A DNA stretch of 64,000 bases from Staphylococcus phage PhiSepi-HH3. Shown one piece after another: positions 3,361 to 18,169 of this stretch. The DNA lies in the sequence record MT880872.1; one strand, 5' to 3'. The position numbers were made by a program, and so were the translations under genes. Within the stretch, counting starts at the first letter, position 1. Each line of letters opens with the position of its first letter. The notes below the pieces were generated by a model. The model worked only from the letters and a program-made list of their open reading frames with translations, searched no databases and had not been told where the DNA came from.

Positions 3361-3468
3361 CTCCTTAACTTAATTTTATTATATATTATTTCTTAAATAC
3401 TTTCAATAGATTTTTGTAATTTTTCTAAATTTTATTTCTTAACTATATTTCTCCCGTGAATTTCTCAT

Positions 3469-3536
3469 TCGCTGTTATATAGCGATATTTCTGAAAGCCC
3501 TGTGGAATTTTAGAATCGCTGTTATATAGCAATATT
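3469..3536. repeat. Direct repeat of tcgctgttatatagcRatattt (2 copies, 46 bp apart) with internal dyad symmetry; candidate operator or iteron
   Basis: The two copies are visible at 3469-3490 and 3515-3536. Confidence 0.5.
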
Positions 3537-3566
3537 TTTCGTTCCCCGACCATTTTAAAAAGGCCG

Positions 3567-3600
3567 CCCATCGCAAACCCAAACCCCCACCCATCGCAAA
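3567..3600. repeat. GC-rich direct repeat CCCATCGCAAA x2 in an otherwise AT-rich intergenic region
   Basis: The sequence reads cccatcgcaaacccaaacccccacccatcgcaaa. Confidence 0.4.
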
Positions 3601-4034
3601 AAACATCGAACACAATATAATTTACATATATTATTATTTTTTCTTTGTCTGTCCGCTGCTTTTTGATCTCGTCACTACTTCACTACTTTAAAATATAGTA
3701 TCATGCTTTAATTAATATATATGTGCTATTTTATGATCTCAATTGTATATTTAACTACCTTAATACTATATAACAAAGCCATTTAATTATTATAATATGC
3801 TTATATATAACGTTTATAGCGTCATTTTAAGACTTTTAACGTGTTTTAATGGTACTATACACATATTTTTTAATGGCTTTTATAGGCTCTTAAATGGCCA
3901 TATAAAGCATATTTATATAATAAAATACGTGTTTTATTTTAAATTATGATTGTGTTAATAGCCTTGAAACACTAGGCAAAAACGCAAAAAATAAAACGCC
4001 TATTATAAAATATAATAAGCGTTTTACTTTGTCA

Positions 4035-4463
4035 TTATTCAATGAATTCATATTGTGAACCGTATTTTATTATAAATTCTTTCTCACTCATTTTTTTACC
4101 GTCAAAGCCACTGTATAGATGGCGTTCGTCTTTGTGTGCTCTTTCCGTGTGGTAGTTTTCATATAATCGCATGGCCTCACTTGTAGTTAATAAATAAGTT
4201 GTATAACTTTTCCTAACTTCTGCCGCTTTCATTAGTCCGCTTTTAAAGTCTCTTACACATGTATTAGCTGGCAATTGATAAATTATTTCACATTCTTTAA
4301 ATGTCATGACTTGCGTCAATGATTTTCTTAATTTAAAAAAATTAATGTGTTTATTTTTAAGATCGTGCAATTTTGTAAATCGTTGAAATGGTTCCCACTT
4401 CATCCCGTTTGTGTCCGATCTCTTGAAATTTGAAACGCTATTTTTTTTGATATATTTTTTCAT
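4035..4463 (-). CDS. Hypothetical early protein (142 aa, basic)
   Basis: ORF from the track in a co-directional early gene array. I recognise no domain. Confidence 0.45.
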   Translation of the reverse strand: MKKYIKKNSVSNFKRSDTNGMKWEPFQRFTKLHDLKNKHINFFKLRKSLTQVMTFKECEIIYQLPANTCVRDFKSGLMKAAEVRKSYTTYLLTTSEAMRLYENYHTERAHKDERHLYSGFDGKKMSEKEFIIKYGSQYEFIE

Positions 4464-4527
4464 TGCTTTTTATCTCCCTTAATGATCAATTATTATTTTA
4501 TTTATGAAACGATCAATATATAAATAT

Positions 4528-15056: not shown

Positions 15057-15148
15057 GTACTTATAATTAAAATAAGCATTACTTAACTAAACCGTTCATT
15101 TTAATTTTTTTGAATAAGGTGTTAAACTATATTTGATTGTACGTTTGG

Positions 15149-16390
15149 CTAATGTGGTGACATTTGATAATCGTACAATTTATGATTCATTACAAGATAA
15201 TGAATTGTTTTTAATAATCGATTTATACAAGCAATGATGGCAGTCTTATGAGGTTTCTCATTAGGCTGCTTTCTTAGTTTGTAGTAATAATCGACGACAT
15301 GATTGTCATAATGATGCTGCCCTCTTATTATATTCATAATCACCCAAAATAAAAGTTTTCTCGCTTTTTTATTACCACGCTTGTTGATGGTATCTCTACA
15401 GTGTGTATGACCTGATTGATATCGTTTGATATCAATGCCAACAAAAGCATTGAGTTGTTTATTTGATTTAAATCGCTTAATATCACCAATCTCCCCAATA
15501 ATCATAGCTGTGCTTAGCTTACCAATACCAGGTATCGAATGAATATTTTCAAAATAATCGAGTTGTTGTGCTAATTGAATCATGGCATCATCTAATTGTT
15601 TGAGATGATGAATAGATTGTTTTAATTGTTGAATAAGTAAGCGTAATTTTTCGACTAGAAAGGAATGTCTATCGACATTAGGATAGCTTTCTTGAGCAAT
15701 CACCCTTAATTGAAGTGCATATTTTGTAGCTTTATCCATTGACATTCCCTTATCTGTAGAATTGAATATATGTGTAATCAGTACCTCCTTGTCGATATCA
15801 AGAACCATGTCTGGATGAGTAAAGATTTCTGCGATGTTGAGTGCAATGATTGAATATCGACTACTAAACAATCTTTCTAAACCAGGGAATGTTTGATGGA
15901 GTAATTCAAGGATCTGAAATTTAAGTCGATTTTGTTCATTCTCGATTTCTAGATGAAAACGGACGCGTTCTCTTAATTCAAAGAATATTAACTCATGTAT
16001 AGGTAAGCTGTCTGTTTGTTTAAGCGTCGGTCCTAAACAAGCAAGCTTATGAGCATCTGCCTGATCAGTTTTCCATGATCTTAGAGCGCTCGTTTTAAAT
16101 TTGGCTTCTAACGGATTCATTTGAATATAGTTAATTTGATTTACACAACAAAATCGTTCCATACCTCTTGAATAGATACCTGTAGATTCAAAAATGAGTT
16201 GTGGGTGGTCTAAGTCATTCAAATACTTGAGTAAATAATTGTAACCATTTTTATTATTCTGGATGAAAAACTCTTTTTGGAATTTTCCATTTTTATAATG
16301 TGCAACTACACTACTTCTTTTACTAATATCAACACCTAAGTAATCGATAAAAAAACCTCCTTTGAATAATTGAGAAGCTAAAAACTTTAC
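15149..16390 (-). CDS. IS110-family (DEDD) transposase
   Basis: The C-terminus IPGIGKLSTAMIIGEIGDIKRFKSNKQLNAFVGIDIKRYQSGHTHCRDTINKRGNKKARKLLF matches the IS110 signature PGIG..GD..RF..QL....G......SG......I.K.GN...R. The reading frame continues upstream of the track's TTG (16222) through ..FIDYLGVDISKRSS.. (the IS110 N-terminal vGIDvsK motif) to 16390 with no ATG. The likely start is near 16348 (ATC/ATT), 8 nt after GGAGG. Confidence 0.8.
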   Translation of the reverse strand, partial: VKFLASQLFKGGFFIDYLGVDISKRSSVVAHYKNGKFQKEFFIQNNKNGYNYLLKYLNDLDHPQLIFESTGIYSRGMERFCCVNQINYIQMNPLEAKFKTSALRSWKTDQADAHKLACLGPTLKQTDSLPIHELIFFELRERVRFHLEIENEQNRLKFQILELLHQTFPGLERLFSSRYSIIALNIAEIFTHPDMVLDIDKEVLITHIFNSTDKGMSMDKATKYALQLRVIAQESYPNVDRHSFLVEKLRLLIQQLKQSIHHLKQLDDAMIQLAQQLDYFENIHSIPGIGKLSTAMIIGEIGDIKRFKSNKQLNAFVGIDIKRYQSGHTHCRDTINKRGNKKARKLLFWVIMNIIRGQHHYDNHVVDYYYKLRKQPNEKPHKTAIIACINRLLKTIHYLVMNHKLYDYQMSPH

Positions 16391-16592
16391 TTAACCTTTC
16401 TCATTTCATTTTCCTATACACGGTTTCAAGAACCCAACATACTACAAACGAATTTCAAAAGGCGAGAGTAAAGCTGACTTGTTTTTTATACGGATTTAAA
16501 ATCCAAGAGTCTGGACAGTCTACTTCTCTCTATAACTATAAAAAATAGCTATGAAAAAATCTATCGTCATAGATTTCTTCATAGCTAATCTT
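16391..16592 (-). ncRNA. Candidate IS110 bridge RNA in the roughly 200-bp non-coding left end upstream of the transposase
   Basis: It holds nested perfect inverted repeats, tagctatgaa/ttcatagcta (10 bp) enclosing atctat/atagat, plus ggattt/aaatcc. This is the position where IS110-group elements encode their bridge RNA. Confidence 0.3.
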
Positions 16593-18065
16593 AGTATGTT
16601 TTGCTTGTCTATGTACCTCAGTTAGAGTTACATGTTCAAATTCTGTTGTATCAAGTAAGTTGTCAAATACTGCTCCTCTACTGATCGAAGGTAATTGTCC
16701 ACTGTCTCCTACAATCATTAATTGAGAACCGCTTTCCACAGCTTTAATTAAGTCTAAAAACAGTTTATTATCAACCATTGAGGCTTCATCTAGAATAACT
16801 ACTTTTTCGCTCAATGGGTTTTCTTCGTTATGTAAAAAACCAAAATTCACTGGATCAAATCTAAGTGTTCTATGTATAGTTTTTGCTTTTAGTCCGTTTT
16901 GTGACAGTACGTTTGCTGCTTTACCACTCAATGCACAAGCAACATGTGGTAAACCGATAATATCAATTGCGGTTTTTAAACTTGAAGTCTTACCTGAACC
17001 AGCGAGTCCATCAAGTATAAATACTCCGTTGCTTACAGCTTTCCTAATCGCTTCTTTTTGCTGCTCATTGAATGTGAAACCTAGTCGATCCTCATTCATT
17101 TTGATAATATCTTCAAGCTCGTTTGTATCATATGAGGTGAAACTATCTCTTATTCTTCTTAAATGCTCTACGATTAGTTCTTCTTCTCTTCGATATTTCT
17201 TTAAACTGATATATCCATTGTCGTAATATACATTCGGATCGTTGATAATCAAACTAAATGTTTCATCGTCAACCTCATCAATTTCTAATATGTCACATAA
17301 GTTTTCTTCAAATTTATCAATACTAAGCTTTGTATCTCCAAGTGCTACCATTTGTTCTATAACGTATAAAGCACCAGCTCTAATTCTTTGTGGTGAGTCA
17401 ATACTAATACCTTTTTTCAAGCCATATTCATCTATACGCTTAAAACCAAAGCCACCAGCAGATGTCAAATCATATATATTATTTTCTATGATATGTAATA
17501 ATTTTTCTACTGATCCATAATGATCGGCTAGAGAAACAACTGCTTTAATACTCGCTCCTAAGGGTGCTAACTCTATAACTGCCTTGCTATACTTAGACAT
17601 CTCAGTAAGCTTTTCTTTAATGGATAAAGCAGTAGCACTCTTAATTCCTTTTACTTCTGTAATATCAACCTTGTCATTAAGAATATCTTTTACTAACTCG
17701 TCACTATAACCAAATTCATCAATAATTGCTTCCGCTTGATTATCTGTCAATATTACTCTTAAAAACTCTTCATTCGCCTTTTTGCCTGAAATACCATCTG
17801 ACTCCACTTCAATAAAAGTATATGTATCAATTTTTCTTCTTTCATCGTAGCTCTCTTTAAATCTAACAGTATAAGCCTCTCCTTCTACTAATGGCTGAAC
17901 ATTACCAGCAATAGAAAAATTTCTATATTGAGGATGAACTGTTATCTCCGGGTTAATTTCTCCTTCAAAGCTAAAACCATAAGCACCAAACATGCTACTA
18001 TCATTATAGAATAGCTGCTTACTTACTACTAATCTCTCTCTAAATTCTTTAAATTCTTTTTCCAT
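16536..18065 (-). pseudogene. RecD-like helicase, N-terminal fragment (Walker A GLAGSGKTS, Walker B ILDEASMV, motif III MIVGDSGQLPS, motif IV TLTEVHRQ), truncated by the IS110 insertion
   Basis: 509 aa. The last 15-18 residues (..KISYEEIYDDRFFHSYFL) are read-through into IS sequence. Confidence 0.7.
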
Positions 18066-18110
18066 TTACATTTCTCCTTTTTGGGTATTAAATTTAAAAC
18101 CTAATACAAC

Positions 18111-18169
18111 TATAAGAAATAAAATATAAAAAGTCAATATCTTTACAAAAGAAATAAAATATAGTAAAA
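18111..18169 (+). promoter_or_regulatory. Two tandem copies of the early promoter motif in plus orientation (tataAGAAATAAAATATAAaaag; aaAGAAATAAAATATAGtaa) ahead of the plus-strand operon
   Basis: Same consensus as the minus-strand copies, but inverted so that it points with the downstream genes. Confidence 0.55.

Follow-up and report, generated by a model that had tools for sequence, protein, structure and literature searches.

The closest described counterparts of the system considered here come from SPbeta-like phages of Bacillus. MrpR, the master repressor of SPbeta, has a tyrosine-recombinase fold, has lost recombinase function and binds an element designated SPBRE at ten promoter regions, as determined by chromatin affinity purification with sequencing (ChAP-seq) and electrophoretic mobility shift assay (PMC10516654). 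The 26-bp box of phage phi3T, CAGTAATTTTATTTTTATTCTTAATG, is bound by an SroF monomer, which surrounds the DNA, contacts 24 bp including two A-tracts and is released by a LexA-controlled antirepressor (bioRxiv 10.1101/2025.11.27.690993). Bacillus promoters that bear these boxes are repressor-bound and run on host polymerase alone (PMC10516654; bioRxiv 10.1101/2025.11.27.690993). The present analysis concerns a repeated motif, AAGAAATAA-n-ATATAAT, in a stretch of 64,000 nucleotides from Staphylococcus phage PhiSepi-HH3 (MT880872.1), referred to below as the window, which an earlier note had interpreted as a phage-specific promoter class. Comparison of sequences indicates that, instead of a novel type of promoter, the motif is most likely an operator superimposed on or placed beside ordinary early promoters. 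With a probability of roughly 0.7, its copies form a predicted operator set of the SPBRE/Phi3TRE type for a repressor of the MrpR/SroF family, acting over host-type early promoters. In the literature searched, neither such an operator set in staphylococcal SPbeta-like phages nor the maintenance of lysogeny by these prophages was described.

Distribution and register of the motif

The first 25 kb of the window are 100% identical to Staphylococcus phage SPbeta-like (NC_029119/KT429160), a temperate phage of 127.7 kb with host S. epidermidis 36-1, and this complete record, in which position 10223 corresponds to window position 1, was used for genome-wide scans. Relative to NC_029119, the window contains an extra insertion of 1557 bp at 15042-16598, inside recD2, and is without the IS3 copy present at record positions 71251-72517. 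Occurrences of AAGAAATAANATATAAT with at most two mismatches were counted in the window with 100 shuffles as the null, and a 23-nt matrix was scanned over the whole phage at a cut-off of at least 20 bits with Markov-1 and intergenic-composition nulls. Since the matrix was refined on the same sites that it scores, the window count of AAGAAATAANATATAAT provides the independent test.

In this test the motif proved genuine, as the earlier note had maintained, with 18 matches against 0.91 expected and no shuffle that reached 18, and a copy was present at every position where the note had placed one. The matrix scan returned 34 sites genome-wide, compared with 0 under the Markov-1 null and 0.01 under the intergenic-composition null. 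Thirty of these copies are mostly intergenic, although intergenic DNA makes up only 11.9% of the genome, and the remaining four straddle the last codons of one gene just ahead of the next. The 34 copies are confined to the two early arms, 21 at record positions 1-30.4 kb and 13 at 80-119.7 kb, with none in the late structural operon. Agreement between the orientation of the motif and that of the nearest gene, at first described as invariable, was noted for 32 of 34 copies. The distance of 25-40 nt upstream of genes given previously did not hold throughout, as the 3' end of the motif is often just 7-20 nt from the start codon (7-15 nt for many copies) and three window copies are at least 100 nt from any gene.

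The conserved block, ttAAGAAATAAaATATAA(T/A)AA, is about 21 nt long and built of phased A-tracts, with G3, T7, T12 and T14 as the invariant positions outside the A/T tracts. The block is not palindromic, which fits a monomeric reader. No column upstream of the motif is conserved across the 34 copies and the absence of a conserved -35, as originally reported, is therefore correct. Resemblance of the 3' half to a -10 element was likewise evident, except that just 17 of the 34 copies have T as the final base of TATAAT. An overlapping hexamer, TAAnAT at positions 7-12, keeps the equivalents of -12 T, -11 A and -7 T in 32-34 of 34 copies, and no TG extension was seen, the corresponding positions reading AA, or n followed by A. 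Compared with Firmicutes sigma-A promoters, the motif is thus similar in its 3' half and, for approximately 10 copies, in a 4-5/6 match to the -35, but differs in having neither a conserved -35 nor a TG extension, in carrying the -7 T of TATAAT in half of the copies and in a nine-base conserved block where sigma-A promoters show none.

The position of the motif relative to promoter elements is not fixed; different copies abut a -35, fill a spacer, supply a -10 or sit 5' of a ribosome-binding site. A scan with a generic sigma-70 pattern was uninformative in this DNA of 26% G+C (145 sites against 146 expected). Strong canonical promoters start within 20 nt downstream of six of the 34 copies (0.25-0.7 expected), and in four of these six the -35 begins 3-4 nt past the motif. 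A hexamer with at least a 4/6 match to the -35 lies 16-18 nt upstream of the copy's own TATAAT in 10 of 34 cases, compared with 15% in shifted control windows. The order motif, canonical promoter, motif, ribosome-binding site and ATG was seen at several loci. In the intergenic region between recD2 and the gene for a 504-amino-acid protein, each of two divergent promoters contains one copy in its spacer (18114-18130 and 18149-18165), the copy in the recD2 promoter being reversed relative to that promoter. This variable register is the behaviour of an operator and not of a core promoter element. The copies assigned in the window are as follows.

2027-2049, minus strand: weak variant copy (20.9 bits), 27 nt ahead of the sroE-like gene
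3374-3396, minus strand: copy reading TTTAAGAAATAATATATAATAAA, its TATAAT 17 nt downstream of TTGAAA (3401-3406), ahead of the sroD-like gene
3420-3442, minus strand: degenerate second copy (21.7 bits), upstream of the promoter of the same sroD-like gene
7031-7053, minus strand: copy 13 nt ahead of the ATG of a 107-amino-acid gene, adjoining the ribosome-binding site
7735-7757, minus strand: copy in the leader of the ArdA gene, 14 nt ahead of its start and downstream of the promoter at 7845-7817
7848-7870, minus strand: copy whose end lies 3 nt before the -35 of TTGATT-17-TATAAT (7845-7817)
8363-8385, minus strand: top-scoring copy of the window (28.7 bits), whose end lies 3 nt before the -35 of TTGAAA-16-TATAAT (8360-8333)
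8973-8995, minus strand: copy 23 nt ahead of a 71-amino-acid gene, with TTAAAA 17 nt upstream of its own TATAAT
9433-9455, minus strand: copy 19 nt ahead of a 94-amino-acid gene, directly preceded by a second element, AAACTAAAATTTTAATT
9642-9664, minus strand: copy with TATACA 17 nt upstream of its TATAAT and no annotated gene within 110 nt downstream
9816-9838, plus strand: copy divergent from that at 9642-9664, pointing into a region poor in open reading frames (ORFs)
12307-12329, minus strand: variant copy ATTAGAAAATAAAATATAAAAAT (21.9 bits), within the same ORF-poor region
14199-14221, minus strand: copy 15 nt ahead of a 291-amino-acid gene, overlapping the last codons of recD2
18111-18133, plus strand: copy filling the spacer of the minus-strand recD2 promoter TTGACT-17-TATAGT (18137-18109)
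18146-18168, plus strand: copy filling the spacer of the plus-strand promoter TTTACA-17-TAAAAT (18142-18170) of the 504-amino-acid gene
19792-19814, plus strand: copy upstream of an HU-like (yonN-like) gene

Repressor operon, Bacillus boxes and related loci

A likely reader of the motif is encoded at the start of the window, in an operon of three genes homologous to Bacillus phage genes.

1-704, minus strand: gp011, repressor gene of the MrpR/SroF family, 334 amino acids, cut by the start of the window, which holds its first 234 codons
716-1999, minus strand: gp012, SroE/YopQ homologue, 427 amino acids, DGQHR/DndB-like (YopQ, E value 3e-30)
2308-3360, minus strand: gp013, SroD/YopP homologue, 350 amino acids, tyrosine-recombinase-like (YopP, E value 2e-25)

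The gp011 protein is 24% identical to phi3T SroF over 297 amino acids (E value 1e-20) and similar to SPbeta YopR/MrpR (E value 9e-16), and its only sequence matches in the PDB were SroF (9rd5, E value 1e-16) and YopR/MrpR (8bj6, 8a0a). Of the two Pfam entries for the MrpR/SroF family (PF22822 and PF22823), MrpR_N_CB was matched with an E value of 3.6e-22 and MrpR_C_cat with 22 bits, which is under the cut-off of 27. Database homologues of gp011 are named "phage lytic cycle repressor MrpR family". The gene order sroD-sroE-sroF is that of SPbeta yopP-yopQ-yopR and recurs in three related prophage loci, and a YorF homologue is encoded by gp007; equivalents of sroA-C were not identified alongside the sroD-sroE-sroF homologues. 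The gene at 2308-3360 was also considered as the repressor and rejected, as its product is the SroD/YopP homologue and resembles YopR only with an E value of 3.5. In this protein the HxxR motif reads HSFK, with K in place of the second catalytic arginine, and the protein may be a non-catalytic DNA binder, like MrpR.

Boxes comparable to the staphylococcal motif were located in both Bacillus phages. A 50-kb stretch of phi3T contained 17 boxes (consensus TTAAGAATAAAAATAAAATTACT), every one co-oriented with genes and running directly into a -35 hexamer or a ribosome-binding site. Read in the direction of the genes, this consensus and that of the present phage, TTAAGAAATAAAATATAATAAA, are similar and of the same polarity, and both represent asymmetric, A-tract-rich boxes of about 23-26 bp that are repeated over early regions. 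When the Staphylococcus matrix was applied to the 50 kb of phi3T, 11 of the top 25 hits fell on boxes, nine at an offset of +1 and two at +6, with scores of 6-11 bits as opposed to at least 20 bits for the sites of the phage itself. Low scores together with fixed offsets suggest that the phi3T and Staphylococcus motifs, both of them A/T-rich, may be related but are not interchangeable. A consensus for SPBRE, derived here from the SPbeta sequence at the ten ChAP-seq targets, reads tAGACAA-ATACAAATAATATGTATA-TAATAAA and is situated in a promoter spacer, between the hexamers of TAGACA-17-TATAAT; two window copies, in the promoter spacers between recD2 and the 504-amino-acid gene, are situated likewise. 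SPBRE and the Staphylococcus motif have the core CAAATAATAT / GAAATAAnAT in common, but the -35-like TAGACA conserved in the former has no conserved counterpart in the latter. In all three phages boxes abut a canonical -35, sit in a spacer or abut a ribosome-binding site. Orthologous positions are occupied as well: one box precedes yorF, another follows sroF directly, and others stand ahead of the sro operon and of the gene at the yonP/yonO position. The present phage differs from phi3T in the low identity of the repressors noted above, in that no arbitrium genes were seen beside the operon and in that the late-region gene that would be under control encodes the 504-amino-acid protein instead of the YonO RNA polymerase.

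Loci of relatives were found as contigs that encode repressor homologues, and their motifs were obtained by de novo counting of words in intergenic DNA. A scan of genome contigs with gp011 as single protein found nothing, and an exact-word scan of viral contigs gave chiefly single chance matches, with several copies in a few contigs. At falling repressor identity the loci all keep the synteny of sroD-E-F, yorF, sak4 and dnaB, and a repeated, co-oriented motif was recovered in each.

S. saprophyticus prophage: repressor 59% identical to gp011; motif AAGAAATAAAATATAAT, as in this phage
Locus L009: repressor 47% identical to gp011; motif AAATAAATTATAAA
Locus L010: repressor 39% identical to gp011; motif CAAAATAATATAATAAAA
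Mammaliicoccus phage phi36: repressor approximately 46% identical to gp011; motif (A/G)ATAAAATATAAAA

The helix that aligns with the DNA-reading helix alpha-13 of the phi3T protein (DKQ[Y/F]xYRK) is conserved among the Staphylococcaceae proteins while residues of the core-binding domain vary. In phi36, an inducible prophage, the annotation splits the MrpR/SroF homologue (L006, 23294-24306) into two neighbouring ORFs that differ in frame, which could be due to a frameshift or a sequencing error. Homologues of MrpR were present in 75 phage records, none of them lactococcal; an SroD-like gene is present in Lactococcus phages but an MrpR homologue was not found there. The first 45 kb of the virulent Lactococcus phage 949 contained no MrpR homologue and no motif hit above 12 bits, and the recurrent words in this stretch were plain TTGACA and TATAAT promoter pieces. 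Taken together, the survey of relatives places the motif in the examined carriers of the repressor, in altered form where the repressor has diverged, and finds it missing from the one examined relative without the repressor.

Operator or promoter

If the motif is the operator of a repressor of the MrpR/SroF family, a monomer of the integrase-fold master repressor gp011 would read an asymmetric, A-tract-rich box of about 21-24 bp, present in 34 copies on or beside the sigma-A-type promoters and leaders of early and replication genes. Further copies among the 34 are at the sro-like operon itself and at the gene that heads the late region. In the lysogen, the repressor, once bound, would cover the -10, the spacer or the position of an UP-element or, alternatively, would stop elongation just ahead of the ribosome-binding site, such that the whole early regulon would be kept silent and would be released on inactivation of the repressor. 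Binding of the motif by gp011, a repressive effect of this binding, the use of host sigma-A RNA polymerase at these promoters and the route of derepression are inferred, whereas the statistics, placement and orientation of the motif, the homology of the repressor operon, the resemblance to the Bacillus boxes and the variation among relatives were observed directly.

Several observations weigh against this assignment. For 24 of the 34 copies, no -35 could be recognised and no canonical promoter lies close by, and the near-universal co-orientation of motif and gene is unneeded for a pure operator but natural for a promoter. A -10-like TATAA core is kept in all variants of the motif. Although gp011 and its S. 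saprophyticus homologue go with the same motif, the residues with which their core-binding domains read DNA are different, and the scores of 6-11 bits for phi3T boxes make the resemblance one between low-complexity, A/T-rich motifs. Finally, the ten ChAP-seq peaks of SPbeta compare with 34 predicted copies here.

Some of these observations would be accounted for if the motif were itself a phage-specific promoter, as proposed in the earlier note, here an early or middle promoter that needs no -35 and starts transcription around motif positions 18-24. Such a promoter, which could double as an operator, would be read by host RNA polymerase together with a phage factor, for example the 504-amino-acid protein, or through an unusual upstream contact. 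Phage promoter classes of this general kind include the T4 late promoter, TATAAATA, used with gp55, the MotA box of T4 middle promoters, promoters dependent on SPO1 gp28 and T7-type promoters of 23 bp, each of which lies at a set distance from the start and needs a sigma factor, activator or RNA polymerase of the phage that has been identified. The present motif resembles them as a long conserved word before many phage genes of a single temporal class but differs in its varying register, and no such phage factor was identified. Apart from strict orientation 5' of genes and the lack of a -35 at most copies, a promoter of this type is favoured by the presence of two -10-like hexamers, TAAnAT (positions 7-12) and TATAA(T/A), by copies at record positions 96432 and 109362 that stand behind terminator-like hairpins, the gene having no further promoter upstream, and by differences between phages in the 5' half of the motif, as expected of a phage-encoded specificity factor. 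However, the register to canonical promoters varies, one copy lies reversed inside the recD2 promoter spacer, and gaps of 7-15 nt between motif and ATG mean that a start 7 nt past TATAAT would fall in or after the ribosome-binding site, a difficulty that is met at several copies (gaps of 7-13 nt). No RNA polymerase gene is annotated, and the corresponding boxes in Bacillus are repressor-bound at promoters which need only the host polymerase. The candidate factor of the phage is encoded as follows.

18201-19697, plus strand: gene for the 504-amino-acid protein (498 amino acids from the RefSeq ATG), behind two motif copies and in the position of SPbeta yonO

This protein carries the label "sigma factor" in RefSeq/PHROG, which could not be confirmed, as no sigma domains were detected, no sequence match was obtained in Pfam, NCBIfam or the PDB, and an AlphaFold model (predicted local distance difference test score 67) gave no Foldseek match with an E value below 0.1; its own gene, moreover, stands behind two copies of the motif. 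Of what was originally proposed, the marking of early transcription units by an oriented motif was retained, whereas a promoter class that needs an activator or sigma appropriator is unlikely; some of the copies that stand alone may nevertheless act as -35-independent promoters. A cassette with both functions, in which the repressor operator is also its own -35-independent promoter with TAAnAT serving as the -10 and transcription beginning at the conserved AA of positions 18-19, is doubtful but deserves more weight. If this were true, every one of the small early genes would be equipped with its own promoter gated by the repressor, reading of the upstream AAGAAATAA block would fall to the repressor or to an activating contact of phage or host origin, and about 20 "orphan" copies beside ribosome-binding sites would be internal promoters and not roadblocks.

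Two further explanations fit only a subset of the copies each. The motif could be a booster of sigma-A promoters, similar to an A-tract or UP-element and acting through contact with the alpha C-terminal domain or through curvature with no dedicated phage protein. Its phased A-tracts are consistent with this, as are six copies that have their end 3-14 nt before a strong -35, at the position of an UP-element, but most copies lie elsewhere, and the invariant G3, T7, T12 and T14 as well as the lineage-specific sequences would not be expected of a conserved host alpha contact, such that this explanation is very improbable. Least probable of all is a function in RNA, as a processing site or translation enhancer in 5' leaders. 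Although the motif is strand-specific and many copies lie 7-29 nt ahead of start codons, some of them within operons, those upstream of the -35 of the nearest promoter would not be transcribed from that promoter, one copy is antisense to the promoter that it overlaps, spacing between motif and ribosome-binding site is variable, and an Rfam search of the window matched no family.

Neighbouring features and meaning of the finding

The second recurring element described in the earlier note, AAACTAAAATTTTAATT, is also genuine. It has five matches in the window where 0.49 would be expected, although two of these are one near-palindromic site read on both strands, and it is conserved in a S. saprophyticus prophage.

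7770-7786, minus strand: near-palindromic copy of the second element in the ArdA leader, with further copies at 8283-8299 and 9453-9469

Of the "ArdA genes" reported previously, that at 7062-7721 was confirmed by Pfam whereas a Pfam search with its 107-amino-acid neighbour was without a hit. When the regions upstream of ArdA were aligned in pairs, gaps were too frequent for a footprint to be drawn past the first copy of the motif.

Upstream of the sro-like operon, beyond its two motif copies, a palindrome, TCGCTGTTATATAGCGA, occurs twice (3469-3485 and 3516-3532) inside a 33-nt direct repeat and may be the site of another regulator. A G+C-rich patch at 3545-3610 (ccccgaccatt...cccatcgcaaacccaaacccccacccatcgcaaaaaac), with two copies of cccatcgcaaa, stands out from intergenic DNA of otherwise 25% G+C. 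The ORF-poor stretch of 3.8 kb at window positions of approximately 9480-13300, near the left edge of which lie the motif copies at 9642-9664 (minus strand) and 9816-9838 (plus strand), contains a degenerate TATGTGTATATA array at 10416-10600 and a pair of 133-nt repeats at 12794-12926 and 13083-13215; it may be an origin or a region of non-coding RNA. The insertion inside recD2 is an IS110-family insertion sequence that splits this helicase gene and contains a transposase ORF at 15149-16222 on the minus strand (Pfam Transposase_20 and DEDD_Tnp_IS110). Four invariant C-terminal cysteines were noted in the 504-amino-acid protein, which has so far been found only in Staphylococcaceae prophages. 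An ORF-free stretch of 1.7 kb at 21690-23385, less A/T-rich and without an Rfam match, lies just ahead of the late operon; a similar ORF-free gap of 1.7 kb is present in SPbeta between yonK and yonN. Outside the window, a LexA-box-like sequence, GAACGTTTGTTC (record positions 74939-74950), is located 34 nt upstream of a 58-amino-acid ORF (74729-74905) that is a candidate Sar-type antirepressor, and another, GAACATTTGTTC (105016-105027), lies ahead of a YolD-like gene.

Staphylococcal SPbeta-like prophages carry resistance and virulence cargo, which in this case includes aacA-aphD, dfrA and thyA, and in relatives sasX. For these prophages the analysis provides a map of a regulon, with 34 predicted operators and a likely repressor by name. 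The five natural variants of repressor and operator are material for the study of specificity in an unusual monomeric reader of DNA. If the assignment of the motif to gp011 is true, repression by integrase-fold proteins of the SroF/MrpR type would extend from Bacillus to the Staphylococcaceae.

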